From Gammaproteobacteria bacterium (GTDB taxonomy: Bacteria > Pseudomonadota > Gammaproteobacteria > Pseudomonadales > Porticoccaceae): 64,000 bases of DNA. Location of the stretch: positions 14,548 to 78,547 of the forward strand of contig JAGPUW010000016.1 in NCBI GenBank assembly GCA_018069465.1, in the 5' to 3' direction. A model generated the notes under the pieces. It searched no databases, was not told the origin of the DNA, and saw nothing but the letters and a program-made list of their open reading frames with translations. Shown here piece after piece: positions 8,201 to 60,417 of this stretch (positions within the stretch are counted from its first letter, which is position 1; each line of letters opens with the position of its first letter). The position numbers and the translations under genes are program-made.

Positions 8201-8227
8201 TGATGGCTTCCGTTGATAGGCATCCCG

Positions 8228-43294: not shown

Positions 43295-44125
43295 ATGAAT
43301 CCACATGCGGCCCAACCCACCTCGTTGGGTTCCCTCGTTAAAAGCCTGCTTATACATCGACAGCTTATCTTGCAGATGACCAAGCGAGAAGTTATTGGAC
43401 GCTATAAGGGTTCCTTTCTCGGGCTGATATGGTCATTTGTTAATCCAGTGCTTATGCTGACTGTTTACACCTTTGTTTTTGCCGTTGTGTTTAAGGCCAA
43501 ATGGGGGATAGGTGGCGAAGACAGCAAAACCCAGTTTGCCGTTGTGCTATTTGTGGGGCTTATAGTTCACGCTCTGTTCGCTGAAGTTCTCAACCGGGCT
43601 CCCGGTTTAATTCTTGCCAACACCAATTATGTTAAGAAAGTAGTATTCCCGTTGGAGATACTGCCAGTTATTACCTTGGGTGCAGCCTTATTTCACAGCT
43701 TTATTAGTCTGGTTGTACTGCTGTCTGCCTTTACGCTTTTTAATGGTTTTATGCATTGGACTGTGGTGTTTATTCCCCTGATCCTTCTGCCCTTAGTTAT
43801 TCTCACGCTAGGCCTTGCCTGGATATTGGCTTCCCTCGGTGTTTTTCTGCGCGATGTGGGGCAGACTATCGGCATTATTACTATGGCCATGATGTTTCTT
43901 GCGCCAATTTTCTTCCCGGTAACGGCGCTTCCCGAAGAACTTCGTCCATTGATTATGGTTAATCCATTGACCTTTATTATCGTACAGGCGCGGGAAGTAC
44001 TTATCTGGGGGCATACGCCAAACTGGGCTGGCCTGGGTATTTACACTGCCGCTGCAAGCGCTGTGGCGTGGGCAGGCTACGCCTGGTTCCAGAAAACCAG
44101 AAAAGGATTTGCCGATGTCCTCTGA
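43295..44125 (+). CDS. wzm: ABC-2 type polysaccharide export permease (Wzm)
   Basis: 276 aa with the Wzm-type N-terminus LIHRQLILQMTKREVIGRYKGSFLGLIWSFVNP, then six hydrophobic segments. Overlaps wzt by 11 nt. Confidence 0.8.
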   Translation: MNPHAAQPTSLGSLVKSLLIHRQLILQMTKREVIGRYKGSFLGLIWSFVNPVLMLTVYTFVFAVVFKAKWGIGGEDSKTQFAVVLFVGLIVHALFAEVLNRAPGLILANTNYVKKVVFPLEILPVITLGAALFHSFISLVVLLSAFTLFNGFMHWTVVFIPLILLPLVILTLGLAWILASLGVFLRDVGQTIGIITMAMMFLAPIFFPVTALPEELRPLIMVNPLTFIIVQAREVLIWGHTPNWAGLGIYTAAASAVAWAGYAWFQKTRKGFADVL

Positions 44126-45494
44126 TCTGGATTCGTCTGACGAGGTGGCCATTCGCGTACAAGGGCTGAGTAAATGCTACCAGATCTACGATAACCCTCG
44201 TGATCGTCTTAAGCAGTTTATTGTGCCCCGATTGCGACGTCTGTTTAGACGGCCGCCAAAGCAGTATTTTCGTGAGTTTTGGGCGCTTAACGATGTTTCA
44301 TTCGATGTCAAAAAGGGCGAAACCGTTGGCATCATCGGACGCAACGGTAGTGGTAAATCTACCCTGCTGCAAATGATCTGCGGCACACTTCACCCCACTA
44401 GCGGCAGCATTCAAACCAATGGTCGCATCGCCGCCTTGCTTGAACTGGGCTCCGGTTTTAATCCAGAATTTACTGGGCGCGATAATGTTTATATGAACGC
44501 TTCAGTGCTTGGTTTAAGCACTGAAGAGATAGACTCGCGCTTTGATGATATTGCTGCCTTTGCAGATATTGGCGAGTTTATTGAGCAGCCCGTTAAAACT
44601 TACTCCAGCGGAATGATGTTGCGCTTGGCATTCGCTGTTATCGCACATGTGGATGCAGATATTCTGGTAGTGGATGAGGCGCTGGCGGTTGGAGATGCTT
44701 TTTTCACCCAAAAGTGCATGCGCTATTTGCGCAACTTTATGAAAACTGGAACGGTGCTGTTTGTTAGTCATGACACGGGAGCGGTCGTTAATTTATGTAG
44801 CGAGGCTATTTTGTTGAATCGGGGATTAGTTGCTAAATCAGGCATACCGAAGGATGTTATTGAGCACTATCTAGCCACGCTTTATGAATCGAATCAGGTT
44901 ACAGATGGTGCTGTAACTGATGACCCCAGCACGGCATTAAGCCTGGAGCAGGGTTCAGGCGAATATCGTGATATGCGCGAGGCTCTAATTAATGCCTCTA
45001 CCTTGCGTAATGATATTGAGGTTTTTAAATTTGAATCCGATCAAGAAGGATTTGGCACCGGTGATGCGAAGATTGTATCGGTGCGCATTTTAGACTCGGA
45101 CGGCACGCCTTTAGCATGGGTGGTCGGTGGCGAGGATGTCATTCTTGAGATCCGGTGTTTGGCTTACAAAGATATACATCGCCCCATCGTTGGCTTTCAG
45201 TTCAAAGATCGGCTTGGCCAGATAGTGTTCGGTGACAACACATACCTTGCTTATCAATACAGCCCCCAGATGGTTGAGAAAAATTGTGAGCTCGTTGCAA
45301 GGTTCGAGTTTCGTTTGCCTGTACTTCCCAGTGGTGATTACAGTATCGCCGCCGCACTTGCTGATGGCTCACAAGATAATCATGTTCAGTATCACTGGAT
45401 GCACGATGCGCTGATTGTTCGTGTGCATGCGAGTTCAGTTTGTTTCGGTCTAATGGGAATTCCGATGAAAAAAATTATATTGGAAGCTCAATGA
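44115..45494 (+). CDS. wzt: Polysaccharide export ABC transporter ATPase (Wzt) with a roughly 200-aa C-terminal extension
   Basis: Walker A GRNGSGKST, signature YSSGMMLRLAF and Walker B ILVVDEAL. After about aa 250 there is a beta-rich extra domain (GTGDAKIVSVRILDSDG...VGFQFKDRLGQIVFGDNT...YSIAAALADG...HWMHDALIVRV), like the glycan-binding domain of O-PS Wzt proteins. ATG 44115. Confidence 0.85.
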   Translation: MSSDLDSSDEVAIRVQGLSKCYQIYDNPRDRLKQFIVPRLRRLFRRPPKQYFREFWALNDVSFDVKKGETVGIIGRNGSGKSTLLQMICGTLHPTSGSIQTNGRIAALLELGSGFNPEFTGRDNVYMNASVLGLSTEEIDSRFDDIAAFADIGEFIEQPVKTYSSGMMLRLAFAVIAHVDADILVVDEALAVGDAFFTQKCMRYLRNFMKTGTVLFVSHDTGAVVNLCSEAILLNRGLVAKSGIPKDVIEHYLATLYESNQVTDGAVTDDPSTALSLEQGSGEYRDMREALINASTLRNDIEVFKFESDQEGFGTGDAKIVSVRILDSDGTPLAWVVGGEDVILEIRCLAYKDIHRPIVGFQFKDRLGQIVFGDNTYLAYQYSPQMVEKNCELVARFEFRLPVLPSGDYSIAAALADGSQDNHVQYHWMHDALIVRVHASSVCFGLMGIPMKKIILEAQ

Positions 45495-46183
45495 TGCGAC
45501 TTTTTACAGGCCCATGCCCTGTTTGTGGTGGGGAGGAGTTTTCAACATGTTCCGTGCTCTGGCCGCAACTCATCAATACTTGGCAATTGTCTGAGGACGA
45601 GGTTGCCTATATCGATCGGCAGCAAGGCTTTCATTGTAAGCAGTGTGGTAATAACTTGCGTGCAATGGGTTTATCGCGGGCCATTATCAAAGAGTACGGA
45701 TTTGGAGCAACACTAAATCAATTCTGCGAGTCATTGAGTGATGTAAAACTCCTCGAGATAAATGCCGCCGGCAACTTGACTTCATTCTTTAAAAAACTGT
45801 CCTCGCACAGGTTGATTGAGTACCCTCAGTTCGATATGCAGAACCTAGATATCGAATCTGAGAGCGTTGATTTGGTGGTTCATTCGGATACATTGGAACA
45901 CGTGCCCAACCCTGAAAGGGCTCTCTCAGAATGTCGGCGAATATTGCGTGGCAATGGGAAATGCATTTTTACAGTCCCTATTATTGTTGGACGTATGACC
46001 CGGTCACGCGTTGGTCTCGCGCCTAGCTATCATGGTCAATCGGACGTGCCTGCGGATGATCAAATGGTTCACACAGAATTTGGGGCGGATGTTTGGCAAA
46101 CTGTCTTGAAAGCAGGGTTTTATTCATGTGAAATATTTTCGCTTGAATACCCATCGGCGCTGATAGTAATTGCAAGGAAATAA
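45491..46183 (+). CDS. Class I SAM-dependent methyltransferase with an N-terminal CxxC...CxxC zinc ribbon
   Basis: Its ATG overlaps the wzt stop (ATGA). Reads MMRLFTGPCPVCGG...FHCKQCGN, then a methyltransferase core (LLEINAAGN, VDLVVHSDTLEHVPNPERALSECRRILRGNGKCIFTVP). Confidence 0.7.
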   Translation: MMRLFTGPCPVCGGEEFSTCSVLWPQLINTWQLSEDEVAYIDRQQGFHCKQCGNNLRAMGLSRAIIKEYGFGATLNQFCESLSDVKLLEINAAGNLTSFFKKLSSHRLIEYPQFDMQNLDIESESVDLVVHSDTLEHVPNPERALSECRRILRGNGKCIFTVPIIVGRMTRSRVGLAPSYHGQSDVPADDQMVHTEFGADVWQTVLKAGFYSCEIFSLEYPSALIVIARK

Positions 46184-46189
46184 AAATTT

Positions 46190-49100
46190 ATGAAGTTTAC
46201 CGGTGAGCGCTTTATCCCTGTTGAACAAGGTAAAATCCGCCTCGAACATTATCATCGCTACGCGATAGTGCAGGATGTAGTAAAGGGAAAAAATGTCTTA
46301 GATGTGGCTTGTGGCGAGGGTTATGGCTCGTTTTTTATTGCCGATGTCGCGCGTTCTGTTGTTGGGGTCGATATTTCAGATGAGGCCGTGCAGCATGCAT
46401 CGCTTACTTATACGAAGTCTAACTTGACGTTTCGTCAAGCCAGCGCGACTGCCCTTGGTTTTGCTGATGCCTCTTTTGACGTTGTGGTGTCTTTCGAGAC
46501 TATTGAACACTTGGCAGAACAATCGCAAATGCTTGCGGAAATTAGGCGGGTGCTACGTTCTGATGGGGTGCTTGTGATTTCTTCTCCCAATCGGCCTATC
46601 TATTCTGAAGAAAGTGGGGAGCATAATGAATTTCATGTCAAAGAGCTTGATTTCAAGGAATTCGATGAATTACTGAGAACGCAATTCCCGGCGATTCAGT
46701 ATTTCGGTCAGCGGATGTTGATGGGTTCAGTGATTCAACCGCTGGAAGGCGGAAAAGACTCGTTCCGTGCCTGGCATGATGATGGTAAAACCTTGAAACC
46801 GTGTGCTGGACATTTGGCCGACCCAGTCTATTTTGTGGCAGTGTGTGGATTAGACAATAGCGACTTACCCGGTATTGAAATGTCGGTTCTTTATCCAGGC
46901 AAGCTGGATTTAGTGAAGCAATATGTGGGTTTTGCAAAGTGGGCGAAAAGACTTGAGAAAAGCGTATCCGAACGCGACGACCCGATAATTATGGAGCGCG
47001 ATGTTCAGATCGCGAGTCTTACAGATGAAGTGGTACGGCGTGGCGAATGGGCGATGCGTCTTGATGCCGAGCTTAAAGAAGAGCGAGAAAAATTTCTTTT
47101 AGTGACAAAAAGTAACTCTTGGCGCCTAACGCTACCTTTGCGTGAAATTCGACGGTGGTTGAGATCACCTGTAAGTCAAACTGAGCGTTATACAAGGGTA
47201 GTCTTGCGCCTCGGAAAGCGTGGATATCAGTCGCTACCGCTAAGCTATCAAACTAAGGCTGCGCACCGGCAATATATTGCTAAATGTTTTCCTGGGCTAT
47301 TAAGGGCAACAGGCACCCATCCCACCACGATTCCGGCATTCAGTGTTCCAACGCTACCAACGACACAGCAAGCTAACCATGAAGAGCCGGTTTTAGTTGC
47401 AGAGCTATCCTCAACTGCTCCTGATATTTCTATTCCGACCTCTGACAAGCCCTTAGTCAGCGTAATCGTGCCTATTTATGGCCAGTGTGATTACACATTG
47501 CGTTGTCTCATGTCAATTGCGGCGAACCTACCGCAGGCAGCATTCGAGGTGATTGTCGTGGACGATTGCTCGCCGGATAACTCATCTGATGTTCTGTCAC
47601 AAATCAGTGGTATCCATTTACTGCGCAACGAAAAAAACCAGGGCTTTATACGATCGTGCAACACCGGCGCAAAAGCGGCTCGGGGCGAATACCTTTATTT
47701 TCTTAATAATGATACCGAGGTAACGCCGGGCTGGTTGGATGAGTTGCTGCGCACTTTCCGTGAATTCCCGGGTACAGGGCTTGCTGGTTCAAAACTAATC
47801 TACCCTGATGGCCGCTTGCAAGAGGCTGGTGGCATTATTTGGCAGGATGGGAGTGCCTGGAATTTTGGACGGCTGCAAGTCGCCCTGCTACCCGTTTACA
47901 ATTACGCTAGGGAGGTCGACTACTGTTCGGGTGCCTCCATCATGGTGCCCAAAACGCTGTTTGATGAACTGGGTGGTTTTGACGAGCATTACCTGCCTGC
48001 CTATTGCGAAGATTCCGATCTCGCGCTCAAGGTGCGTGACAAGGGGCATCGGGTAATTTACCAGCCGATGTCGACCGTTATCCACTATGAGGGTATTACG
48101 TCGGGCACGGATACAACACAGGGCGTTAAAGCCTATCAAGTCGAGAACAGCAGAAAGTTGTTCGAGCGATGGCAACACCGTTTGCAAGCACACCAGACAC
48201 CAGGCGTGGATGTAGACAAGGCAAAAGATCGCAGAGCTTCACGGCGTGCCCTGGTAATTGATCACTGTACCCCCGCGCCCAACCAGGATGCGGGTTCTGT
48301 AACGGTATTCAATCTCATGCTGTTATTACGAGAAATGAATTTCCAGGTCACCTTCATCCCGGAAGATAATTTTCTGTATATGCCCGACTACACCACCGCG
48401 TTGCAGCAGGCAGGGATTGAAGTGCTCTATGCGCCTTATATCACCTCCGTTGAACAGCACTTGAAGGCATGCGATGACCGCTATGATTTAGCATTATTGT
48501 TTCGCCCGGTTGTGTTTGAGCGGAATATAAAGGTGATCCGTAAACATTGCCCGAAAGCCAAGGTGCTTTTCCACACTGTGGATTTACACTTCCTGCGCAT
48601 GTCACGTGAAGCCGAACTTCAATCAGACAAGGCTAAACAAAAAGCGGCAGACGAAATGAAGCAGCGCGAGCTGGCGGCGATTCGTGCCGCGGATGCCGCC
48701 ATTGTGCACAGTACTGTTGAACTGGAACTCCTCACTCCACTGCTTCCCGATGCCAGGCTTCACGTCTTCCCCTTAATAATGGATATCAAGGGAACGACGC
48801 AAACATTTAAAGAGCGTAGAGACGTTGTGTTTATTGGCGGTTATCAACACGCTCCAAATGTGGATGCCGTGCAGTACTTTGCGGCAGAAATCATGCCGCT
48901 GCTGCGCAAGCTATTGCCGGGAGTTCGCTTTTATGCGGTGGGCAGTAATCCTCCTGCCGAAATAAATGCTTTGGCATCGGATGATATTATCATCACCGGT
49001 TTTGTTGAAGACCTGACGCCACTGCTCGACAAGATGCGCGTTTCAGTTGCGCCCTTACGTTACGGTGCAGGCATCAAAGGAAAAATAGGCACCACGATGG

Positions 49101-50278
49101 CCGTTGGTCTGCCGGGTGTTGCAACATCGCTTGCAGTCGAAGGAATGTCGCTTAGCGATGGTGAAAATATTCTGGTGGCTGACGGGGCAAATGAGTTTGC
49201 TAATGCCATTGTTAAACTTTATCAGGATGAAGCCTTGTGGGTGAGTATTGGCCACAAGGGATTACAGTTTGCAGATAAGGTATGGGGTGCCGAAGCTTCG
49301 TGGAATATTCTGGCGTCAATAGTTACTGACTTGGGCTTTGGTGTGAAGCGTGGCGCGCACCTCCTCTCGCTTTATACTGAATCACAGGGGCCAGAAACAA
49401 ACAATAAAATTGTAGCGGCCCTTGAGCCTATTGCCTCAGTCAATAATCGAAAAGATTACGAGCAACTTTTGCAACGTGACACGATAAGCCAAATCAGCAA
49501 CATCGAGACACAACTTCTCAGTACCGCAAACTCAGAAGTCTTTTCTGTAGATGGTTTGTGTGTGCCCTGTGACCAAAAAGTAGCCTTTTTGGTTGACATG
49601 GCGTCCGGTGGTCAACGCATTGAAAATGGCTGGCTCCCCAATTGGCGAGAACGCTTAGAATGCCCTTTGTGCAGGATGAATAACCGTCAGCGTTTAATAG
49701 CAACTCTTGTAAAGCAAGCGCTTTTTGCCAAGCAAGAGCAACAGGTTTACTTTATGGAGCAGGTCACCCCCATCTACAATTGGGCGACAAAAACATTTAA
49801 AGAACATCGTCTCGTTGGTAGTGAATACCTTGGGTATGAATATGAAGGTGGGGCGACGATAAAAGGTATCCGGCATGAAGATGTCGAGAACTTGAGTTTT
49901 TCAAATGCAAGGTTTGACTTAATAGTGAGTAATGACGTGTTTGAGCATGTGCCCCATCCTGAAAAAGCCTTTGCTGAATGCGCTCGTGTGCTCAATGAAG
50001 GCGGGGTGATGTTGGCTACGATCCCTTTTCACAGTGCCAGCGACTTGTCCGTAATACGTGCGCGACTAAGTAGCGGTCAAGTCGAGCATGTTTTGCCGTC
50101 AGCCTACCACGGTAATCCTGTTTCTACGGATGGCTCTCTCGTGTTTACAGATTTTGGTTGGGACGTGTTAGAGCTTATAAAGGTAGCAGGATTTTCTGAT
50201 GTCCGTGTGGATGTCTATGCATCGCCGGAGTTTGGACATTTGGGTGGCGGGCAGATGGTTTTTAGGGCAAGGCGATAG
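46190..50278 (+). CDS. 1362-aa multidomain glycan-assembly protein: SAM-MTase / helical segment / GT2 / GT-B (GT4-like) / zinc-ribbon SAM-MTase
   Basis: One uninterrupted ORF. Domains read from the translation: (1) aa 1-185 methyltransferase ([24 protein letters not shown]). (2) aa about 245-325 charged helical stretch ending in [15 protein letters not shown]. (3) aa 421-660 GT2 ([31 protein letters not shown]). (4) aa about 685-1045 GT-B with ExxxxxxxE (EGMSLSDGE). (5) aa about 1120-1362 methyltransferase after CVPC...CPLC ([38 protein letters not shown]). Confidence 0.8.
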
Positions 50279-50384
50279 TGTTAGTTTTTAAAAACGGGTT
50301 TAAAATAAAAAAACTGGGCTACTGGTCGACCCTCACTGGCGATGTAGTAGTGGTAGTGATGTTTTGCAGTGCAAATTTACAGTG

Positions 50385-52322
50385 ATGGATATGGACGAAC
50401 GCAGTACTAACTTGATGCCATCTACATACATAGGGCGTAGTGAGATCCTCGCCGACATTGTGCTAATAATTTTGCTTACTGCACTTGTATTCGGCTTGGC
50501 CTATCACCCTTATTTCTTTGGCGATGAATTAATGGCGCATCGGTTGGCTATTAAGAGTGATTACTCTTTTACCTCGATTTTTCAGGGATTGAATGGTTAC
50601 AAGCCACGGTTGGTCTTCAACGGCATACTAGCTTTGCTGGCTGAATGGCAGGTATCACGGTTGGTGTATGCGGCACTGCTGGTAGGTTATATGGTTTGGA
50701 TCAACGTTCTATTGTATGGGGCTGTGCGGTACCTGTTCAATGGTGGCCGAGTACTGGCATGGCTACTGATTGCGGTCGTAATCACTTCGCGCTACGGAAC
50801 GATGCTTTATTTCGATTATGTTTCTGGGTTGGTTGAGCTATTGAGCACATCCTTACTTCTCAGTATGCTTTTATTGTCGTGGTTGGCGTGGGGTACAGGT
50901 TTCAGGTGGTGGTACGCGGTTGCTGCATTGGTCGCTTCGATTCTGTGTGTTTTCGTACATGAACGCTATATAGCGGGTTTGCTGGCTGCTGGTTTGGCGA
51001 TTGCGCTTGCCGAATGCTTGGGCTCCGCCGCCGAACGTCGAATACTTGTAGTTGGCTGGGCGTTATCGTTGGGTTTTGTGCCTCTGTTTTTGTTTGCTCT
51101 GGCTAATGAAACACTTGGTTCTTTACCTATGACAACCGGCGCTGCAGGGCAGCGAGTCATGCTAGGCGGCGACACGCTTTGGTCTGCACTGACTTATAGT
51201 TACAACGTCTTTTTAGGGGGTAATTACGGGCACGAGTGGTTCTGGGGCCATTACAACCACTTGCAATCTGTGGGCAAAATCATGGGTTTTGGCACGGTGG
51301 CCTGCACAATCATACTGTTAGTGGTGGTTGTCTTGAGGAAAGAGCTTGCATGGCATAGCCGTTGGTTGGTCGCTGGCCTTTTAGCGTTAGCCATAGCCTT
51401 GATCGCGATCGCAAGTTTGCCGGGGCCAAGTCATCAAGCGGCGCGTTACATGTTCCCGGTGGGTATTTTGGTAGCGATAGCCTGGATCATCATGGTGACA
51501 AACGTATGGCGATACGTTGGTATAGGATTGATTTTAGCTATTAATATTATGTACTTGCTTTTGGGATCATATGATTCAATCTCTAGTGTGTATTCGTCCC
51601 GCGCGGCGAACTCTGTGGCAGGTTCGCTGCTTGGTGTCATGCCAAATGGCAGAAGTGGTTTGGTCGTGGGCAATAATGACGATTTTTGGTCGATTGGTGG
51701 TGGCGCTGCTTTTGATATGGGGCCTAGGCAAGGCGATACATTTAGCAAGGTTAATCTGAAATCTTCGGTATATATAGATCCATTTGTAGAGGGGAGGGCC
51801 TTCGATCCTGCACTCTACGATTTCGGGTTGGCTTTCAATGGTTTTGGTCCGCATCGGACTGCCCGTTACCGTTTGGTTTCAGTCGACACAGCCCTAGTTT
51901 TGGCTGGAATTTCGGACGTGGAAAACTTGCCAGTAAATACTGTGCTTGGAAGTCGTGATACCTGGGCAGAGTGGCAATGGAACGAGCAACCGAATCAAAT
52001 CGAAGGGGCAGTGGCACTACGTGCCGGCACGGAAGGTTGGCGTGCTCTGCCTGTCGTTGCCTTGGATGGGCGTTGGTTAGTATATCGCGCCCGTGCTAAA
52101 AGTGGCGCGCGAGTGCCTATGCGTCTACAAGTCAACTGGCACGCTAAGCAGGATAATCGCTTCTTGTCTGCGATGATCGAAGTGGTTTATCCGAACGAAA
52201 CATGGAATTCGTACGTGACTTTGCTCAAGGCGCCACCAGGTGCTGGCATTGGCTATGTTTATGCGACTTTGCATGAAGGGGTTCAGGGTGTGGTGGAATT
52301 GAAATCGGTGGAATTAAAGTGA
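50385..52322 (+). CDS. Polytopic membrane protein with a C-terminal soluble domain; candidate GT-C-fold periplasmic glycosyltransferase
   Basis: About 10-12 hydrophobic segments over aa 30-450. An acidic motif, YFFGDELMAH, follows the first TM, which is the usual place for the GT-C catalytic Asp/Glu. The C-terminal 200 aa or so are hydrophilic and beta-rich. The start is uncertain (TTG 50364, ATG 50385 or ATG 50391). The function is inferred from the neighbouring GtrB/GtrA-like genes. Confidence 0.5.
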   Translation: MDMDERSTNLMPSTYIGRSEILADIVLIILLTALVFGLAYHPYFFGDELMAHRLAIKSDYSFTSIFQGLNGYKPRLVFNGILALLAEWQVSRLVYAALLVGYMVWINVLLYGAVRYLFNGGRVLAWLLIAVVITSRYGTMLYFDYVSGLVELLSTSLLLSMLLLSWLAWGTGFRWWYAVAALVASILCVFVHERYIAGLLAAGLAIALAECLGSAAERRILVVGWALSLGFVPLFLFALANETLGSLPMTTGAAGQRVMLGGDTLWSALTYSYNVFLGGNYGHEWFWGHYNHLQSVGKIMGFGTVACTIILLVVVVLRKELAWHSRWLVAGLLALAIALIAIASLPGPSHQAARYMFPVGILVAIAWIIMVTNVWRYVGIGLILAINIMYLLLGSYDSISSVYSSRAANSVAGSLLGVMPNGRSGLVVGNNDDFWSIGGGAAFDMGPRQGDTFSKVNLKSSVYIDPFVEGRAFDPALYDFGLAFNGFGPHRTARYRLVSVDTALVLAGISDVENLPVNTVLGSRDTWAEWQWNEQPNQIEGAVALRAGTEGWRALPVVALDGRWLVYRARAKSGARVPMRLQVNWHAKQDNRFLSAMIEVVYPNETWNSYVTLLKAPPGAGIGYVYATLHEGVQGVVELKSVELK

Positions 52323-52341
52323 AGTGCATGGGAATAATTTT

Positions 52342-53295
52342 ATGGCGCAAGAAAGAAAATTAGTTTCTATAGTAGTACCTTTTTTCAACGAGGGCGAAGG
52401 GGTTGAATATTTCTACCAGGCTATTTGTACTATTTTCGATCAAGTACCTGACTACAGTTTCGAGGTGGTATGCGTAGATGACGGGAGTCATGACGATACA
52501 TTAAACAAGTTGATCGACATTGTTGGCCTTGATCCGCGTTTCCGTGTCATTGAGTTCTCGCGGAATTTTGGTAAGGAAGCCGCGCTAACCGCCGGTATCA
52601 ATGCTGCGAAAGGTGATGCTGTTATACCATTCGACGCCGATCTTCAAGACCCACCAGAATTGATTCCGACTCTGATCACGGAGTGGCAGCAAGGCGCAGA
52701 TGTTGTACTTGCCCGCAGAGTCGACCGAAGTGTTGATTCATTCCTTAAGAGGAAAACGGCTGGGATGTTCTACCGATTTCACAATCTTATTTCCTCAGTA
52801 AAAATTCCTGAAAATGTCGGCGATTTTCGGTTGATGAATCGTGCTGTAGTTGATGCGTTAAATCAACTTCCAGAACGGCAGCGTTTCATGAAGGGCTTGT
52901 TTGCTTGGGTAGGTTTCAAAACCGCAGTTGTGGATTACACGAGAAATTCGCGAGCAGTGGGTACAACGAAATTTTCAGGGTGGAAACTCTGGAACTTTGC
53001 CCTTGAAGGGTTTACCAGCTTTAGTACAACACCACTTAAAGTATGGTTCTATATTGGGGGTGTTGGGGCTCTTTTAACCTTTTTCTACGCTACATTCATT
53101 ATTTTGAGAACTTTGATATACGGTGTGGATATTCCCGGTTATGCCTCTTTATTGGTAGCAGTTTTATTTTTTGGCAGCCTTCAACTAATTAGCGTTGGAA
53201 TGTTGGGTGAATATATGGGGCGAATTTACATGGAAACTAAGCAGCGACCGCTATACGTTGTTCGAGCGCGATACGAGGATAAAAATGAACCCTGA
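52342..53295 (+). CDS. GT2 polyprenyl-phosphate glycosyltransferase (GtrB/ArnC/DPM1-like)
   Basis: VSIVVPFFNEGEG, VCVDDGSHDDT, DADLQDPPELI, and two C-terminal TM helices (VWFYIGGVGALLTFFYATFII; LLVAVLFFGSLQLISVGMLGEYMGRIY). This is the GtrB architecture. ATG 52342. Confidence 0.8.
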   Translation: MAQERKLVSIVVPFFNEGEGVEYFYQAICTIFDQVPDYSFEVVCVDDGSHDDTLNKLIDIVGLDPRFRVIEFSRNFGKEAALTAGINAAKGDAVIPFDADLQDPPELIPTLITEWQQGADVVLARRVDRSVDSFLKRKTAGMFYRFHNLISSVKIPENVGDFRLMNRAVVDALNQLPERQRFMKGLFAWVGFKTAVVDYTRNSRAVGTTKFSGWKLWNFALEGFTSFSTTPLKVWFYIGGVGALLTFFYATFIILRTLIYGVDIPGYASLLVAVLFFGSLQLISVGMLGEYMGRIYMETKQRPLYVVRARYEDKNEP

Positions 53296-54025
53296 TGCCT
53301 ATTTAGAAATGGCGGATACTGAAGCCCGTCATTGGTGGTTTACTGGTCGACGAGCCATACTGGCACATCTCATCGATACTTTTGATTTGCCCCCAAACGC
53401 AAGAATCCTAGAAATAGGTTCTGGCACTGGAGGGAATTTGCAAATGCTGTCCACTTTCGGACAAGTCAGCGCCCTGGAGATGGATGCCACTGCTCGTGAA
53501 ATAGCAATGAATAAAACAGGCAGGTGTTTTGATATACGTCCCGGTTTTTGCCCTACTGACATCCCTTTCGTCGGCGAGAAATTTGACTTGATTTGTCTTT
53601 TTGACGTGCTGGAACACATTGATGAGGATGTTGAAACACTCATAGCAGTGAAGGCGCTTCTGGCCGAAGGAGGTCGGGTTTTGGTAACTGTTCCTGCGTA
53701 TCGCTGGCTTTGGAGCGCTCACGATGTCTTTCTTCACCATAAGCGGCGTTATTCAAAGGCTGAGTTTAACCAAAAAATATTTACTTCAGGGCTGCATCCT
53801 GTGAAGATTTCACACTTCAATACTATTCTTTTTCCGCTTGCAGCCATTGTTCGAATGAAAGACAAGTTATTTGGTAACTCGTTAGCAAGCGGAAGTAGCA
53901 TCCCGCCGGCACCAATCAACCGTCTTTTTACAGCTATATTCAGAGGGGAGCGGTTGTTGCTATCAAAAATTAACCTCCCATTCGGAGTTTCGTTACTTGG
54001 TGTACTTCGTGCTGGGCACTTTTAA
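53285..54025 (+). CDS. Class I SAM-dependent methyltransferase
   Basis: ATG 53285 overlaps the GtrB-like stop by 11 nt. Contains HWWFTGRR, ILEIGSGTGGN and FDLICLFDVLEHIDED. Its stop lies 1 nt before the GtrA-like ATG. Confidence 0.75.
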   Translation: MNPDAYLEMADTEARHWWFTGRRAILAHLIDTFDLPPNARILEIGSGTGGNLQMLSTFGQVSALEMDATAREIAMNKTGRCFDIRPGFCPTDIPFVGEKFDLICLFDVLEHIDEDVETLIAVKALLAEGGRVLVTVPAYRWLWSAHDVFLHHKRRYSKAEFNQKIFTSGLHPVKISHFNTILFPLAAIVRMKDKLFGNSLASGSSIPPAPINRLFTAIFRGERLLLSKINLPFGVSLLGVLRAGHF

Positions 54026-54026
54026 T

Positions 54027-54404
54027 ATGGCCTCATCTAGACTCACAAGACAGGCCCAGCGATTTGCTCTCTCCGGTTTACTCGTAACGGGTATCCATGT
54101 ATTTTCAGCGTCGGGTCTTATTCTTCTGCTAGTTGTAGACCCTCCGATCGCCAATGGTCTGGCATTCGTAGTTGCAACTGTGTTTTCGTACACGATCAAT
54201 ACTCTGTGGAGCTTCTCCAGCCCTCTACACGGCAGAAACCTTATTCGTTTTATGGCGGTTTCAATGTTCGGTTGTTTTCTTGCCGTGAGTGTTGCTAGCG
54301 CTGCTCAACACTATGATTTGCACTATTTATACGGAATTGGGCTGGTTGCTTTAGTCGTTCCGCCAGCTACGTTTTTACTACATAGTTTTTGGACGTATAG
54401 ATGA
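54027..54404 (+). CDS. GtrA-family small membrane protein (putative lipid-linked sugar translocation component)
   Basis: 125 aa from ATG 54027 with four TM segments and GtrA-like motifs (RFALSGLLVTGIHV; FSYTINTLWSF). Confidence 0.75.
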   Translation: MASSRLTRQAQRFALSGLLVTGIHVFSASGLILLLVVDPPIANGLAFVVATVFSYTINTLWSFSSPLHGRNLIRFMAVSMFGCFLAVSVASAAQHYDLHYLYGIGLVALVVPPATFLLHSFWTYR

Positions 54405-54525: not shown

Positions 54526-55371
54526 ATGTCAGTTGTAATAATTGGAGCAAGCGGCTATATCGGATCGTGCCTACTTGAGAAGGCACCTCTCGATTCCTGG
54601 GGTACGGCATCTAGTGGCCGTACCCCAGGCTTGATCGACTTTGATCTTGCGCATTCTGACGGGTTTCCGTGGCATCGATTATTTAAAGATGACGTTGTCG
54701 TTATGACTGCCGCTATCTCGTCGCCCGATATTTGTGCGCATGAGCATGCACGTGCCTGGGCTGTGAATGTAACGGGCACATCGGAATTCATCACTAATGT
54801 GATTGCGCGTGGAGGTCGCGTTATTTTTTTCTCCAGTGATGCCGCCTATGGTGAACACAGCGATATATTTGACGAAAATACAGTAAGTCATCCAGTTGGT
54901 GAATATGCTGTGATGAAGCATGAGGTTGAAAAACGATTTCAGGGTAATCCATCCTTTAAGAGCATCCGTCTCTCCTATGTTTTTTCGAAGGAAGATAAAT
55001 TCACTCAGTACCTAAATGGCTGTGCTTCAAGTGGTGAAGAGGCCGAGTTGTTCCACCCGTTCTATCGGGCAATCGTTCACCGTGACGATGTTATTGATGG
55101 AGCGCTCGCACTTGCCACGAGGTGGGACGAGTTCCCTCAGCAGATTATTAACTTTGGTGGTCCCGAGGTGCTTTCAAGAATTGACTTTGCTCAATGTTTG
55201 AAGAATGCTGCATTGCCTAATCTGCGATTTATTGTAAAGGATCCCGGGCCAGATTTTTTTAACAATCGACCGCGAGTTATTGCGATGTCGTCTGAGGTTT
55301 TGCCGAAGCTACTTGCTCGGCCTTCCCACACCTTGGCTGAAGCAGTAAAAATTGAGTTCTTATCAAAGTAG
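54526..55371 (+). CDS. Extended SDR, RmlD-like reductase; candidate GDP-6-deoxy-4-keto-heptose 4-reductase (DmhB/WcbJ-like)
   Basis: 281 aa with Rossmann motif IIGASGYIGS and catalytic YAVMK. The function is inferred from its position directly upstream of the 4,6-dehydratase and the heptose activation genes. Confidence 0.55.
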   Translation: MSVVIIGASGYIGSCLLEKAPLDSWGTASSGRTPGLIDFDLAHSDGFPWHRLFKDDVVVMTAAISSPDICAHEHARAWAVNVTGTSEFITNVIARGGRVIFFSSDAAYGEHSDIFDENTVSHPVGEYAVMKHEVEKRFQGNPSFKSIRLSYVFSKEDKFTQYLNGCASSGEEAELFHPFYRAIVHRDDVIDGALALATRWDEFPQQIINFGGPEVLSRIDFAQCLKNAALPNLRFIVKDPGPDFFNNRPRVIAMSSEVLPKLLARPSHTLAEAVKIEFLSK

Positions 55372-55410
55372 ATTTTACAGGGTATTGAGTTGTCATTTTA
55401 GAGGGAAAAG

Positions 55411-56442
55411 ATGAGAAAAAAATTATTGATAACGGGCATTACCGGTCAGGTGGGGTCTCAACTGGCAGATTATGTTTTAGAAAATACTGAATATGACGTT
55501 GTCGGGATGATGCGTTGGCAGGAGCCGATGGATAATCTGTATCACCTGGCGGGCAGGATTAATAGCAAGGATAGAATTAGTGTCTATTATGCAGACCTGA
55601 ATGATTCTGCGGCCATATCCCGAATGCTTCGGGATATAAAGCCGGAATTCATTTCCCACCTAGCTGCTCAGTCCTACCCTAAAACATCGTTCAATATTCC
55701 GATTGAAACTTTGCAGACCAATATTATTGGTACGGCAAATCTACTGGAGAATATTCGGCAACTAAAGGAAATCGACGGGTATGACCCCGTCGTGCACGTG
55801 TGTTCTTCTAGCGAAGTTTACGGCAAGGCGAAACCCGGTATGCCGCTGTCAGAAGATACTAACTTTCATGGGGCAAGTCCCTATAGTATAAGTAAAATTG
55901 GAGCGGACTATTTAGCCCAATTTTATGGGGAGGCCTATGGAATACGGACATTTATTACAAGAATGGGCACGCACTCCGGCCCCAGGCGGAGTGATGTTTT
56001 TTTTGAAAGCACTGTAGCTAAGCAGATTGCTTTGATTGAGGCTGGTCTGCAGGAGCCTTTTATTAAGGTTGGCAATTTATCAAGCACAAGAACTTTTCAG
56101 GATGCTAGAGACGCTGTCAGGGCATATTTTTTACTTCTCGAGGAAAGCGAGAAGGGGAATATAAAATGTGGTGACTATTTCAATATTGCTGGCGAAGAAG
56201 CCTTTAAATTACCTGAAGTGATTGAGCTTTTCTTAAGCATGAGTGCGCGGCAAGATATTAAGGTTGTTACGGATGAAGAAAGAATGCGTCCGATTGATGC
56301 TGACTATCAAATGTTTGATAACACCAAGATTCGCATGGCGATCGACTGGAAGCCTGAGATACCTGCCAGGCAAATGTTTAGCGACTTACTGAATCACTGG
56401 AGGGATGAAATTTCCAAAGGGAAGATACCTCTAAACAGGTGA
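55411..56442 (+). CDS. GDP-sugar 4,6-dehydratase, GDP-D-glycero-alpha-D-manno-heptose dehydratase type (DmhA/WcbK-like)
   Basis: 343 aa with LITGITGQVGSQLADYVLENT.YDV.GMMRWQEPMDN, HLAAQSYPKTSF, SSSEVYG, the YSISK catalytic motif and GTHSGPRRSDVFFES. This closely resembles the heptose-specific Gmd paralogues of Campylobacter, Burkholderia and Yersinia as I remember them. Confidence 0.7.
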   Translation: MRKKLLITGITGQVGSQLADYVLENTEYDVVGMMRWQEPMDNLYHLAGRINSKDRISVYYADLNDSAAISRMLRDIKPEFISHLAAQSYPKTSFNIPIETLQTNIIGTANLLENIRQLKEIDGYDPVVHVCSSSEVYGKAKPGMPLSEDTNFHGASPYSISKIGADYLAQFYGEAYGIRTFITRMGTHSGPRRSDVFFESTVAKQIALIEAGLQEPFIKVGNLSSTRTFQDARDAVRAYFLLLEESEKGNIKCGDYFNIAGEEAFKLPEVIELFLSMSARQDIKVVTDEERMRPIDADYQMFDNTKIRMAIDWKPEIPARQMFSDLLNHWRDEISKGKIPLNR

Positions 56443-56499
56443 CTGATTTGGCTCTTTGTCGAGTGGCGATCGCTACGAATAAATTTTGGAATATAAATA

Positions 56500-57528
56500 A
56501 TGATCATAAGAGCACGCGCACCCTTGCGCCTTGGCTTGGCCGGCGGCGGCACCGATGTTTCACCTTATTGCGACACGCACGGCGGCTATGTTCTCAATGC
56601 TACGATTGACCGTTACGCCTATGCCGTCATTAAAACCTTGGATGTACCGGAGGTGCGTTTCTTAGCCACCGATCAGCAGGTGGTCAAGGTTAAGCCGGTA
56701 GGTGAGCCTTATGCCCTGAACGGTAAGCTCGATCTGCACAAGGCGGTTTATAACCATATGGTGGAGCACTATAACGGCGGACAGCCCATTCCTTTGGAGC
56801 TGAGTACCTTTTGCGATGCACCGGCGGGGTCTGGCCTCGGGTCATCCTCTACCCTGGTGGTGGTGATGATTCGCGCGTTTGCGGAGTTACTGAATCTACC
56901 TCTTGATGACTACACGATTGCTCACCTGGCCTACAAACTTGAGCGTGTGGATTGTGGTTTGCTAGGAGGGCGGCAGGATCAGTATTCAGCTACTTTTGGC
57001 GGCTTCAATTTCATGGAGTTTTATGCCGATGAGCGCGCGGTGATTAATCCTTTACGTGTTAAGAACTGGATTATTTGCGAGTTGGAAGCTTCTTTGCTGC
57101 TGTTTTATACAGGTGTTTCGCGTGAGTCGGCCAAAATTATTGCTGACCAAAGTAGTAATGTGAAAACGGGCTTGGTCAATACTATGGATGCGATGCATGG
57201 TATTAAGCAAGAAGCACTTGTTATGAAGGAGTGCCTTTTAAGAGGCGATTTTGGTGGCATAGTTGATTCGATGCGCCAAGGCTGGGAAAGTAAAAAGCGC
57301 TCTGCTGAGACTGTATCTAACCCCCATATCGATTCTGTTTATGATGCGGCCATCAACTCTGGAGCATTGGCGGGCAAAGTGTCTGGTGCTGGTGGCGGTG
57401 GTTTTATGATGTTTTTTGTGCCCCCCGACAAGCGGATGGATGTGGTCAGAGCATTGAATTGCTTTGAGGGTCAAGTGAGTAACTGTCATTTCACCAAGCA
57501 TGGCACGCAGGCATGGAGAGTTGAATGA
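56500..57528 (+). CDS. hddA: GHMP-family D-glycero-alpha-D-manno-heptose 7-phosphate kinase (HddA/WcbL-like)
   Basis: 342 aa, [20 protein letters not shown], with GHMP motif [10 protein letters not shown] and C-terminal [11 protein letters not shown]. Overlaps gmhA (ATGA). Confidence 0.8.
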
Positions 57529-58109
57529 ATAGCTATATCACAGCACAAATAGCCGAAACCCAAAGGCTGATGACTGCCATGCTGGCAGATGCCTTGTTGC
57601 TGGCAAAGGTGGAGGCTGCGGCCCAGGCATGTATTGACTGTATGAAGGCTGGGGGCAAAATATTGTTGGCAGGGAATGGTGGCAGTGCCGCCGATGCACA
57701 GCATATTGCCGGTGAGTTTGTTAGCCGTTTTGCTTTTGACCGGCCAGGGCTACCTGCGGTTGCGTTGACAACCGACTCATCGATTCTTACTGCCATTGGT
57801 AATGACTATGGCTATGAAAAGCTGTTTGCCCGCCAGGTTCAGGCATTAGGTAATCAAGGCGATGTTTTTATCGGTTATTCAACTTCGGGTCGCTCGCCCA
57901 ATATACTTCTAGCACTCGAGGAGGCTCGATCATCTGGCCTGGTATGCATTGGCTTGACGGGTAATCGAGGAGGAGTGATAGGCGAATTGTGCGATTATTT
58001 GTTGGAAGTGCCGTCCAGTGATACGCCAAAAATTCAGGAGGGGCACCTGGTGCTGGGCCATACTTTGTGCGGCCTGGTTGAAAATCATATCTTTACACCT
58101 TCAGCATGA
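57525..58109 (+). CDS. gmhA: Sedoheptulose 7-phosphate isomerase GmhA (SIS)
   Basis: 194 aa with [37 protein letters not shown] and EGHLVLGH. Overlaps the next gene (ATGA). Confidence 0.85.
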
Positions 58110-58801
58110 AGGCGATTGTACTTGCCGGTGGATTTGGTACGCGACTTCGCGAACGAGTACCTGATTTACCTAAACCCATGGCTCCGGTGGCGGGCCGCCC
58201 TTTTCTGGAATATGTTCTCGACAAGTTGGTGTTAGGGGGCGTGAGTGAAATCATTCTTTCAGTGGGATATAAAGCCAATATCATTATTGAGCATTTCGGC
58301 GATGTTTATCGCAATGTTGCCGTTAGTTATGCAGTTGAGGAAGAGCCCTTGGGGACAGGTGGCGCAATTTTTCATGCGCTTAAAGGCCAGGGTGAGGAAG
58401 CTACTCTTGTACTGAATGGCGATACCTTTTTAGATGTTGACTATAGGGAGCTTATCCTTTGGTACGCTCAATCACCTACACAAGTCGCGATGGTGTTAAG
58501 GGAAGTGCCGGATGTGGCCCGTTATGGTTCTGTGCTGGTTTCAGGTGAACAGGTTTCTAGCTTTGTGGAGAAGGGCAAGGCTGGCTCTGGTTTGATAAAC
58601 GCGGGTGTTTATTTTATTAATCCAGGTGTTTTTGGAACTTACTCCCTCTCCGGGAAATTTGAATTGGAGGCTGATTTACTCCAAAGGCACTGTCGTACAT
58701 TAACCCCCCGAGCTTTTATCAGCGATACTTTTTTTATTGATATCGGCGTGCCGGATGATTACGACCGTGCTCAGCACGAACTTCCAGCTCTATTACGATA
58801 G
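58106..58801 (+). CDS. hddC: D-glycero-alpha-D-manno-heptose 1-phosphate guanylyltransferase (HddC/WcbM-like)
   Basis: 231 aa with nucleotidyltransferase motif [15 protein letters not shown]...PKPM, GTGGA, NGDTF and [11 protein letters not shown]. Confidence 0.8.
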
Positions 58802-60162: not shown

Positions 60163-60417
60163 ATGACAGAAGTAACCTTAGATATAAAGAAATGGGGTAA
60201 TAGTTTAGGGGTGCGATTACCCGCTGTTATTGCTCGTGAGGCAAACTTGCATTCTGATCAGCGAGTACGAATTTCTATTATCGATAAACAAATTATTATC
60301 ACACCCATTGTAAGTGAAGCGCTGACATTGGAGGAGCGACTCGCTAATTTTGATCCTGCGGTTCATGGCGGTGAAGCTATGTCTGTTTCAGAATCTGTGG
60401 GCGCTGAGAAGTGGTAA
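60163..60417 (+). CDS. mazE: MazE-family (AbrB/SpoVT fold) antitoxin
   Basis: 84 aa, IKKWGNSLGVRLPAVIAREANL..DQRV.ISI.D..IIITP, with an acidic C-terminal tail ending in W, like E. coli MazE. Confidence 0.85.
   Translation: MTEVTLDIKKWGNSLGVRLPAVIAREANLHSDQRVRISIIDKQIIITPIVSEALTLEERLANFDPAVHGGEAMSVSESVGAEKW

Follow-up and report, generated by a model that had tools for sequence, protein, structure and literature searches.

A predicted single-polypeptide polymerase and chain terminator of a Wzm/Wzt polysaccharide pathway in a gammaproteobacterial metagenome-assembled genome

A single open reading frame in the window (the whole 64,000-nucleotide stretch of DNA analysed, to which all positions refer) probably encodes an enzyme that both extends and terminates the chains of a Wzm/Wzt polysaccharide pathway, with a heptose- or 6-deoxyheptose-rich O-antigen as the predicted product. 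The ORF (46190..50278, forward strand) starts with ATG and codes for 1362 amino acids plus a stop codon, with no internal stops in the ORF listing. Its product is identical to the NCBI protein MBQ0720514.1 from a Gammaproteobacteria metagenome-assembled genome (MAG), where it bears only the label "methyltransferase domain-containing protein". The N-terminal MKFTGER is common to homologues, indicating that the ATG start codon is correct. The module order is a methyltransferase (MT1), a long helix, GT2, GT4, and a Cys4 zinc ribbon with a second methyltransferase (MT2). An earlier note on this DNA had read the ORF as one uninterrupted frame with five modules, and the ORF listing, Pfam, AF2, Foldseek, and full-length homologues recovered every module where the note had placed it. 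Dozens of homologues align over the full length (100%) of the query at 57-77% identity, and the five-module architecture recognized at the sequence level is far beyond chance. The catalytic activities and sugar identity given below are predictions, as are an oligomeric coiled coil and a ruler function in the window protein.

MT1 (aa 1-235; 46190..46894, forward strand) is the proposed chain-capping terminator, as suggested by Pfam, AF2, Foldseek, invariant motifs, and the exchange of this module among relatives. The Pfam profile Methyltransf_11 matched aa 37-130 (3e-39) over its entire length (profile positions 1-95), AF2 predicted a Rossmann fold for aa 17-235, and the Foldseek matches were SAM methyltransferases. 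Motif I (D38-x-A-C-G-E-G-Y-G46, within [11 protein letters not shown], aa 36-46), D61, and D97 were invariant among 20-30 homologues. The predicted Rossmann fold, the glycine-rich motif I, and an acidic motif II fit a class I SAM methyltransferase. A search of the 1362-aa protein against Pfam and NCBIfam gave no kinase match. A kinase concealed between MT1 and the helix, as found in K. pneumoniae ORF6-O7, was rejected, as the methyltransferase fold ends at aa 235, the helix begins at aa 241, and no match was obtained.

The GT2 module (aa 421-670; 47450..48199, forward strand) was assigned by Pfam, PDB sequence search, conservation, AF2, and Foldseek. Pfam matches, Glycos_transf_2 (5e-28) among them, covered aa 424-543 and aa 423-635, and the GT-A fold modeled for aa 423-666 retrieved GT-A enzymes in Foldseek. 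The residues D458-D459, N506-N-D508-T509, and E607-D608 were invariant among 20-30 homologues; an inverting GT-A enzyme is predicted from the nucleotide-binding DD, the DxD-type metal motif, and the catalytic acidic residue. The GT4 module (aa 684-1047; 48239..49330, forward strand), assigned by Pfam, conservation, AF2, and Foldseek, was modeled as a GT-B fold at a pLDDT of about 85-95 and matched MshA, PimA, ManT, and sucrose-phosphate synthase in Foldseek with E values of about 1e-14; Glyco_trans_1_4 matched aa 877-1013. It contains K963-G-K965 and an EX7E motif (E984-x7-E992), of which E984 was invariant and E992 was not. The predicted two-Rossmann fold with a C-terminal EX7E motif is that of a retaining GT-B enzyme. 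One polypeptide thus holds two glycosyltransferase modules, and the GT2 and ExxxxxxxE GT-B assignments of the earlier note stood, the proposed domain-wise check with an AlphaFold model and Foldseek having returned a Rossmann MT1, a GT-A, and a GT-B. Neither aa 181-420 nor the first (N-terminal) half of the GT-B module gave a Pfam match, and the assignments there rest on AF2 and Foldseek.

In close relatives (72-76% identical), the helix-GT2-GT4-MT chassis is kept and the N-terminal methyltransferase is replaced. The head of P0073 and P0074 is a GT99 β-Kdo transferase (PF21912, 1e-69; PDB 5fa0, 9e-75) and that of P0083 is a Sulfotransfer_3 domain; both types of chassis are 73% identical to the window protein and retain the C-terminal methyltransferase. 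For the GT99 module of WbbB, the role of β-Kdo chain terminator has been established experimentally (PMC9587256; PMC11231755). Since GT99 or a sulfotransferase takes the place of the methyltransferase on the same chassis, the N-terminal head appears to be a swappable terminator, and MT1 is likely the capping enzyme, as predicted from its position and its relatives. MT1 lies at the end of the helix remote from the glycosyltransferases; in all characterized systems, the terminator occupies the coiled-coil ruler's distal end (PMC11231755), and position and comparison suggest the same placement here. Our literature search found no paper on sulfotransferase terminators with coiled coils. The spread of the full-length architecture, which the earlier note had proposed to follow by BLASTP, proved wide: it was complete in 65 of the 120 best matches, and the family was present in 287 species genomes from many phyla.

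MT1 is followed by the helical spacer (aa 241-306; 46910..47107, forward strand), which AF2 modeled as a single continuous helix of 66 residues; spacing and periodicity analyses relate it to a coiled coil of 14-residue repeats in relatives. The motif [15 protein letters not shown] follows at aa 308-322, and further helices extend over aa 309-373. These belong to a helical segment that is basic and conserved (aa 308-375, [12 protein letters not shown]...; 47111..47314, forward strand) with a net charge of +12, a candidate membrane-proximal anchor or scaffold by conservation and AF2, for which membrane association is presumed. A poorly conserved, low-confidence linker (aa 376-420; 47315..47449, forward strand; pLDDT <50 at aa 376-403) leads to GT2, and a linker with a helix (aa 1048-1116; 49331..49537, forward strand; AF2) connects GT4 to the zinc ribbon.

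The spacing equivalent to W251-W311 ranged from 28 to 332 aa among 94 homologues and was quantized: 73 of the 94 fell into one mod-7 class (p = 4e-43), as did 24 of 43 distinct lengths (p = 3e-10), and the class was replicated in species-dereplicated genomes (10/14, p = 2e-6). In relatives, 21/42-bp tandem repeats encode the spacer; 30 of 84 loci contained DNA tandem repeats whose period was some multiple of 21 bp, and the heptad periodicity of relatives' spacers reached z = 28. In all but one of the pairs with flanks at least 90% identical, spacers differed by 7, 14, 42, 56, or 98 aa; in the remaining pair, the difference was 32 aa. On O-antigen rulers that vary naturally by tandem repeats or heptads, the literature search returned only work on engineered WbdD (PMC5082667). 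We tentatively propose, at somewhat less than even confidence, a minisatellite-encoded ruler in this family, in which whole-heptad copy changes of 14-residue (42-bp) coiled-coil repeats would tune how far apart terminator and polymerase lie, over a range of about 4 to about 49 nm, and thereby the length of the glycan chains. The repeat tract may also serve as a recombination junction for the exchange of methyltransferase, GT99 Kdo transferase, and sulfotransferase heads. The window protein would then be a near-minimal-ruler allele making short methyl-capped chains, and sulfate-capping terminators a previously undescribed class.

In the window protein itself, W251 and W311 are 60 residues apart (rank 21 of 94, in the short quartile), giving a reach of at most about 9 nm, and the spacer contains Pro265 and a one-residue (+1) register skip. 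Its heptad signal did not reach significance (z = 0.2 for period 3.5 and 2.5 for period 3.6), and its designation as a coiled coil is therefore based on homology with relatives that are strongly periodic. TRF detected no DNA tandem repeat in the window ORF; repeat-driven length variation is thus a property of relatives and not of the window allele. Because the spacer is short and irregular and lacks significant periodicity, a ruler role is weaker here than in relatives. The charged helical segment for which the earlier note envisaged a possible ruler role was recovered as a helix, with no significant heptad signal of its own. A possible, if rather unlikely, alternative is that the helix is an oligomerization or scaffold element and linker, with chain length set kinetically or stoichiometrically. 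The short, irregular spacer without a significant heptad signal agrees with this, as do the low AF2 confidence at aa 237-265 and the finding that capping by WsaE in vitro is independent of chain length. Against it stand the strong heptad periodicity and heptad-step length changes of the homologous segment in relatives, which imply selection on a register-preserving rod, and the shift of the modal chain length of WbdD by engineered changes in coiled-coil length (PMC5082667).

Directly upstream of the ORF lies a cassette of three genes on the forward strand: wzm, an ABC-2 permease (43295..44125; Pfam ABC2_membrane); wzt, an ABC ATPase (44109..45494; ABC_tran) with a C-terminal Wzt_C carbohydrate-binding module (aa 312-450, 2e-37); and a stand-alone Cys4 zinc-ribbon methyltransferase (45440..46183), by sequence comparison a paralogue of MT2. 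The ORF is thus part of a Wzm/Wzt locus, in which the ATPase's carbohydrate-binding module is predicted to make export cap-dependent. The Wzt sequence read from the listed TTG start had no exact match in the protein collection, the start codon probably being called differently. Downstream, profile matches identified a predicted GDP-heptose/6-deoxyheptose precursor cassette (54526..58801, forward strand) comprising an Rmd-like reductase, a Gmd-like 4,6-dehydratase, HddA, GmhA, and HddC. Beyond the ORF itself, the locus contains two more GT2 genes, two more methyltransferase genes, and a Gtr-like system, and the term "self-contained" in the earlier note was too strong. Its central reading, a polymerase with a built-in terminator, gained support from the upstream Wzm/Wzt_C transporter, the position of MT1, head swapping, and heptad-quantized spacers, all features predicted from sequence.

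The arrangement recurs in related loci. The cassette wzm-wzt(Wzt_C)-methyltransferase-large ORF was found in loci L002 and L003, L004 has it without the small methyltransferase, and in L005 wzm and wzt(Wzt_C) are followed by a 471-aa protein without Pfam matches and then by the GT99-headed P0073. The heptose cassette was also present in L002, L004, and L005. The homologue of Pseudomonas sp. SJZ079 adjoins a Wzt without Wzt_C, indicating that export does not depend on a cap throughout the family. We consider it improbable that, instead of an LPS O-antigen, the product is a different glycan exported by Wzm/Wzt (for example, an exopolysaccharide, a capsule-like polymer, or the glycan of a glycoprotein). 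The organism is an uncultured MAG known from its genes alone, no waaL or core genes adjoin the cluster within the window, and homologues of ORF6-O7 occur in an exopolysaccharide locus and in an archaeon. However, the DNA comes from a Gram-negative gammaproteobacterium, O-polysaccharide and S-layer glycan pathways are where Wzt_C-type transporters typically occur, and two related loci adjoin rml genes, with L002 also adjoining LPS-core genes (Glyco_transf_9, Glycos_transf_N).

The C-terminal part consists of a Cys4 zinc ribbon (aa 1117-1164; 49538..49681, forward strand), recognized by invariant cysteines (C1124, C1127, C1158, C1161) in AF2 β-hairpins and common to the upstream small methyltransferase, and of MT2 (aa 1165-1362; 49682..50275, forward strand), a Rossmann methyltransferase by profile searches, AF2, and comparison with the small methyltransferase, and the proposed in-chain O-methyltransferase. 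The MT2 fold was predicted at high confidence, and E1212 and D1243..E1252-H1253 were invariant. Motif I is atypical (E1190-Q-V-T-P, without glycines), and the Pfam and PDB profile matches span only the second half of a class I methyltransferase fold, so that SAM binding is not assured. The Foldseek matches listed for the C-terminal half were all GT4 enzymes, with none for MT2 separately. The zinc ribbon and second SAM methyltransferase of the earlier note were thus recovered as a ribbon and a Rossmann fold with an atypical motif I.

MT2 is present in GT99-headed and sulfotransferase-headed relatives, thus accompanying the glycosyltransferases whatever the head, and is more likely an in-chain modifier. 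It was missing in 35 of the 120 best matches; among the methyltransferase-headed relatives without it, the match covers 1-1063/1066 in Pseudoduganella and Collimonas and 1-1048 in Janthinobacterium. The "methyl-capping and/or backbone O-methylation" of the earlier note may accordingly be divided, with MT1 as the likely cap enzyme and the C-terminal methyltransferase as the more probable in-chain enzyme by sequence comparison. With four methyltransferase domains in the locus, the capping assignment is not unique. Reversed roles, with MT2 or its upstream paralogue capping for Wzt and MT1 acting in-chain, would also suit the retention of MT2 and the small methyltransferase beside wzt in several loci, and both assignments are predicted from sequence. 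Yet MT2 persists under the known GT99 terminator and under sulfotransferase heads, it is dispensed with in many methyltransferase-headed relatives, and every characterized terminator lies distal to its coiled coil; we judge such a reversal to be slightly less probable still than a non-LPS product.

An artefact of assembly or annotation joining separate genes has a negligible chance, its sole support being the MAG origin of the window, and a gene fusion of this kind was rejected in view of the many full-length homologues, including those of isolates such as Methylobacter psychrophilus Z-0021 and Pseudomonas sp. SJZ079.

With MT1 as terminator, GT2 (inverting) and GT4 (retaining) would alternately lengthen a chain linked to undecaprenyl diphosphate on the cytoplasmic side of the inner membrane, with the basic segment at the base of the helix close to the membrane and the helix keeping MT1 apart from the glycosyltransferases. 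Once the nonreducing end arrived at MT1, its O-methylation would stop extension, and the transporter's Wzt_C module would read the methyl cap for export. MT2 and the stand-alone paralogue would methylate within the repeat unit and not act as terminators.

Coiled-coil ruler control of ABC-transporter-dependent O-antigens has been based on a few enterobacterial prototypes and engineered coiled-coil mutants. The family offers a natural series for this model, with one GT2-GT4 chassis, heptad-step spacers of 28-332 residues, and interchangeable heads; natural alleles would make the model testable, and terminator chemistries that are new, sulfate caps for example, may come to light. The gain for the window protein is mainly a functional annotation as a predicted fused polymerase and methyl-capping terminator, probably of a methylated heptose/6-deoxyheptose polymer.

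Among known systems, ORF6 of K. pneumoniae O7 (Kelly et al. 2024, PMC11231755) combines in one polypeptide, as predicted for the window protein, a methyltransferase terminator at the N-terminus, a coiled coil in the middle, and two glycosyltransferases on its C-terminal side; it is encoded in a wzm/wzt locus, and its terminator lies distal to the coiled coil. It differs in an extra kinase and a CBM-like domain between methyltransferase and coiled coil, a methyl-phosphate cap, a GT2+GT2 polymerase using dTDP-Rha, and the lack of a C-terminal methyltransferase. WbbB of Raoultella terrigena/K. pneumoniae O12 likewise unites terminator, coiled-coil ruler, and two polymerizing glycosyltransferases in a single protein, and its GT99 head is the one borne by P0073 and P0074 on the window-type chassis. 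Unlike the window protein, WbbB carries GT99 instead of a methyltransferase, has GT102 and GT103 in place of GT2 and GT4, and lacks a C-terminal methyltransferase.

The WbdD/WbdA systems (E. coli O8 and O9a; K. pneumoniae O5 and O3) share with the pathway predicted here a methyl or methyl-phosphate cap, an N-terminal methyltransferase on a coiled-coil ruler, and export that requires recognition of the cap by the CBM of Wzt, for which Wzt_C is the predicted counterpart in the window. WbdD is, however, a separate protein that recruits the polymerase WbdA (two or three GT4 modules), with a trimeric coiled coil of roughly 20 nm and a C-terminal membrane helix, whereas all functions are fused in the window protein and its spacer is far shorter. 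WbdD-type identity was rejected, as the ORF has no kinase beside the methyltransferase and no stand-alone terminator. WbdD was not among the best 60 of 94 PDB sequence matches to the whole protein, and no direct homology between MT1 and WbdD is claimed.

WsaE of Geobacillus stearothermophilus NRS 2004/3a is also trifunctional, with an N-terminal capping O-methyltransferase and two glycosyltransferases encoded directly after wzm-wzt, but is a rhamnan polymerase of a Gram-positive S-layer glycoprotein pathway and has no second methyltransferase. The TET operon of Pseudomonas syringae (wzm-wzt-MT-GT; PMC7820976) is a comparable transport-elongation-termination cassette for a 6-deoxy-D-manno-type polymer (D-rhamnan), with MT-GT fusions in some isolates; its glycosyltransferase is, in contrast, of the WbdA/WbpX-like family 1 (GT4-type), coiled coils are not discussed, and a C-terminal methyltransferase is not reported there. 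The view that the architecture had not been described thus holds narrowly for the exact module order and not for MT-coiled coil-GT-GT (ORF6-O7, 2024) or MT-GT-GT (WsaE). The design itself is already known from WbbB, ORF6-O7, and WsaE and is no new kind of machine; by description, the window protein is set apart from ORF6-O7 by the absence of space for a kinase, the GT2+GT4 pair, and the added Cys4 zinc-ribbon methyltransferase.

The earlier note had described a single uninterrupted reading frame, and this was borne out: the gene (46190..50278, + strand) has an ATG start and encodes 1362 amino acids, an exact match to MBQ0720514.1 (NCBI) from an uncultured Gammaproteobacteria MAG, labeled 'methyltransferase domain-containing protein'. 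Homologues share the N-terminal sequence MKFTGER, indicating that the start codon is right. Pfam analysis of the protein gave two matches to Methyltransf_11 (best match at aa 37–130, 3e-39), Glycos_transf_2 at aa 424–543 with Glyco_tranf_2_3 extending to aa 635, and Glyco_trans_1_4 at aa 877–1013. AF2 modeling in two pieces, aa 1–690 (mean pLDDT 68) and aa 680–1362 (pLDDT 85.6), yielded an N-terminal Rossmann methyltransferase (MT1, aa 17–235), a single continuous helix (aa 241–306), shorter helices (aa 309–373), a disordered stretch (aa 376–403), a GT-A domain (aa 423–666), a complete GT-B domain (aa 684–1047) and then a linker, a helix after this linker (aa 1087–1112), β-hairpins (aa 1117–1150), and a Rossmann domain reaching to the protein end (MT2, a putative SAM methyltransferase). 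Foldseek matches of the first piece were GT-A enzymes and SAM methyltransferases; the second matched retaining GT4 enzymes (E ~1e-14), among them sucrose-phosphate synthase, MshA, the mycobacterial methylmannose-polysaccharide ManT, PglA, and PimA. Across 20 aligned full-length homologues, invariant residues comprised D38-x-A-C-G-E-G-Y-G46, D61, and D97 in MT1; D458-D459, N506-N-D508-T, and E607-D608 in GT2; K963-G-K965 and E984 (of E984-x7-E992) in GT4; and C1124, C1127, C1158, C1161, E1190-Q-V-T, D1243, and E1252-H1253 at the C-terminus. Thus, domain matches, predicted folds, structural similarity, and motif conservation place all five modules where they had been located from the sequence.

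Pfam and PDB-profile matches to MT2 covered just the latter half of a class I methyltransferase fold (~aa 1228–1276). Its motif I reads E-Q-V-T-P in place of a glycine-rich loop and does not vary among the aligned homologues; AF2 predicts the fold with confidence. MT2 is 35% identical (111 residues, E 2e-19) to a 247-aa zinc-ribbon-type methyltransferase encoded directly upstream (45440–46183), in which all four cysteines of the MT2 zinc ribbon are present; judged by their sequences, the two are paralogues from one zinc-ribbon methyltransferase subfamily. The listed TTG start of the smaller gene overlaps wzt by 55 nt, and the alignment suggests a true start near MMR, at ~aa 17–19 of the listed ORF.

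This small methyltransferase gene lies between the large ORF and the ABC transporter genes wzm (43295–44125) and wzt (44109–45494), the latter encoding a C-terminal carbohydrate-binding module (CBM; Wzt_C, 2e-37). Upstream of wzm is uvrA (− strand), whose product groups with Candidatus Reddybacter and other marine gammaproteobacterial bins. Downstream of the large ORF follow genes for a 652-aa polytopic membrane protein with ~11 or more TM segments, a soluble C-terminal domain, and no Pfam match (50364–52322), a GtrB-like GT2 with two C-terminal TM helices (52324–53295), a methyltransferase (53195–54025), and a GtrA-family protein (53997–54404). The methyltransferase ORF overlaps the ends of both neighbors, and its true start therefore probably lies downstream of the listed TTG. 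The 652-aa protein, the GtrB-like GT2, and GtrA (50364–54404) are possibly the three components of a Gtr-like system that would add side branches by extracytoplasmic glycosylation. A predicted GDP-heptose to GDP-6-deoxyheptose cassette (54526–58801) encodes an Rmd/RmlD-like reductase, a Gmd-like 4,6-dehydratase scoring below the Gmd cutoff, HddA, GmhA, and HddC, and is followed by a GT2 gene on the minus strand. No GmhB phosphatase gene adjoins this cassette; unlike here, a HAD hydrolase gene follows hddC in a related locus (L002). Further downstream lies manC (61661–63091), separated from the polysaccharide cluster by a MazF/PemK-family toxin gene (60411–60788). HddA, GmhA, and HddC lead to GDP-D-glycero-D-manno-heptose, from which a Gmd/Rmd-like pair produces a GDP-6-deoxyheptose. 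Since both gene sets are present, the polymer is probably based on heptose or 6-deoxyheptose.

The order of modules had not been recognized as a described architecture in the earlier note. It proved to be widespread under loose annotations (e.g. 'O-antigen biosynthesis protein'). Among the best 120 of 1964 protein-search matches, 65 combined a methyltransferase head, GT2, GT4, and a C-terminal methyltransferase, mostly with 57–77% identity at 100% query coverage. Screening one genome per species yielded 287 relatives, distributed over Gamma-, Beta-, Alpha-, and Deltaproteobacteria, Acidobacteria, Planctomycetia, Spirochaetota, Verrucomicrobia, Nitrospirota, and Bdellovibrionota; among the isolates are Methylobacter psychrophilus, Pseudomonas spp., Pseudoduganella, Collimonas, Janthinobacterium, and Dechloromonas. 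In some relatives, the match stops near residue 1063, leaving no C-terminal methyltransferase; others match solely from ~residue 240–255 on. The order wzm-wzt(Wzt_C)-small methyltransferase-large ORF recurred in the loci L002 and L003. A related cassette in L004 is without the small methyltransferase, and in L005, a 471-aa protein with no Pfam match occupies its position, before the GT99-headed homologue P0073. The heptose cassette was also found in L002, L004, and L005. In contrast, the locus of Pseudomonas sp. SJZ079 (L001) contains gmd/rmd/manC and sulfotransferase genes, with APS kinase and three sulfotransferase genes at 3392–9235 and 16219–17046, a spacer of 290 residues, and a Wzt without the Wzt_C module. 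These features hint at a sulfated D-rhamnan exported independently of a CBM.

In relatives with 72 to 76% identity in the chassis (repeat helix, basic segment, GT2, GT4, C-terminal methyltransferase), a different domain occupies the N-terminus. The head of the homologues P0073 and P0074 is Glyco_transf_99 (PF21912, 1e-69), and their first 380 residues matched PDB 5fa0/8csb (E 9e-75), the former a fragment of R. terrigena WbbB. The founding member of GT99 is the N-terminal β-Kdo transferase of WbbB, which adds terminal Kdo to O-antigen (PMC9587256; PMC11231755). Since an established chain terminator can stand in for MT1 with the polymerase unchanged, MT1 is best read as the chain terminator itself. 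MT2 is an unlikely candidate for this role, because the C-terminal methyltransferase is kept whichever head is present and is missing from many methyltransferase-headed relatives. Another homologue, P0083, has a Sulfotransfer_3 head; visual inspection revealed its GMHRSGTS motif also in the N-terminus of P0081, a head with no Pfam match, and in P0091 and P0105, yet another head contains an RSGST motif. The sulfotransferase head and the three sulfotransferase-like heads suggest sulfate-capping chain terminators. No description of sulfotransferase-headed terminators, or of swappable terminator heads on one chassis, was found in the searchable literature.

The spacer length was determined as the distance between the conserved tryptophans flanking the helix, W251 (GFAKWA) and W311 (SNSW), and was 60 residues for the window protein, against a range of 28 to 332 among 94 homologues (~4–49 nm at the coiled-coil rise of ~0.15 nm per residue). 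A single mod-7 residue class held 73 of the 94 homologues (p = 4e-43 against 1/7), 24 of 43 distinct lengths (p = 3e-10), and 10 of 14 measurable loci in species-dereplicated genomes (p = 2e-6); off-class lengths were mostly +1, +4, or −1. The length of the N-terminal methyltransferase is constant, with the first tryptophan at an identical position in 74 of 94 homologues. The repeat unit of the relatives has 14 residues (ERDGQIASLSQAVT and variants) with a 3.5-residue hydrophobic periodicity of up to z = 28. Helix-coding DNA contained tandem repeats in 30 of 84 loci, with periods of 21, 42, 63, 84, 105, 126, or 168 bp (Dechloromonas: 63 bp × 8.7 copies, 98% identity). Near-perfect 42, 63, or 126 bp repeats, with up to 10.9 copies and 85 to 98% identity, encode the coiled coil in Pseudomonas sp. 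SJZ079 (L001 10894–11349, 42 bp × 10.9 copies), L024 (5520–6067), L017 (6769–6974), and L022 (5552–6080), and such repeats appear to be a minisatellite-like source of ruler-length variation in the relatives. Of eight homologue pairs whose flanks share 90% identity or more, six differed by 7, 14, 42, 42, 56, and 98 residues, the remaining two by 32 or 1. This pattern is as expected of a register-preserving rod whose length would be under selection as a ruler; no description of a heptad-quantized, repeat-encoded spacer was found in the searchable literature. Three homologues (P0054, P0056, P0058) have multiple ~36-residue repeats (WYLEQNPDVAEAGINPLxHYLxxGAxEGRNPNPLFD) inserted after the coiled coil (aa ~400–700).

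The window spacer, which ranks 21 of 94 in length, holds solely a degenerate copy of the 14-residue repeat and has, relative to the 52-residue class, an 8-residue insertion including Pro265; AF2 models the part preceding residue 266 with low confidence, the spacer's own heptad periodicity was not significant, and no DNA tandem repeat was found in the ORF. Hence, of the helical spacer or ruler proposed in the earlier note, the helical spacer was confirmed, and its reading as a coiled-coil ruler is by homology. It would give a separation of at most ~9 nm. The adjoining residues 308–375 are helical and conserved (S310, W311, P316, and R318 invariant) and carry a net charge of +12, all other segments being net negative; by analogy to the membrane-proximal end of WbdD, the rod base may contact a membrane or scaffold through them.

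From these observations, we infer the following chemistry for a polymerase-terminator pathway. The inverting GT2 and the retaining GT4 would take turns extending an Und-PP-linked chain, giving an alternating β/α backbone according to CAZy family stereochemistry. MT1, at the distal helix end, would methylate the non-reducing end once within reach and so stop growth; the capped end would be bound by the Wzt_C module and the chain exported by Wzm/Wzt. MT2 and the small upstream methyltransferase would add in-chain methyl groups, and a side branch in the periplasm may stem from the Gtr-like genes. The one-protein polymerase and terminator proposed initially agrees with the logic of the fused class and with the head swapping and heptad-quantized spacers of the relatives.

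The window protein is an uncharacterized variant within an already known design, and the main interest lies at the family level, in the repeat-encoded, heptad-quantized spacer and the swappable heads including sulfotransferases. WbbB follows the same logic in one protein (GT99-coiled coil-two GTs), as does K. pneumoniae O7 ORF6 (MT-kinase-CBM-coiled coil-GT2-GT2), which was characterized in 2024 with the statement that the terminator is always distal to the coiled coil (PMC11231755). WsaE combines a methyltransferase and two GTs with a methyl cap, WbdD/WbdA represent a split version of the fused design, and in P. syringae TET operons, methyltransferase and GT are sometimes fused (PMC7820976). 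Apart from the coiled coil, for which the helical spacer of this allele is a possible counterpart, the window protein shares the structural features of fused systems and lacks those specific to WbdD (kinase, stand-alone protein). It differs from the known systems in its methyltransferase head without a kinase, a polymerase composed of GT2 and GT4, an extra zinc-ribbon methyltransferase, and a probable heptose substrate.
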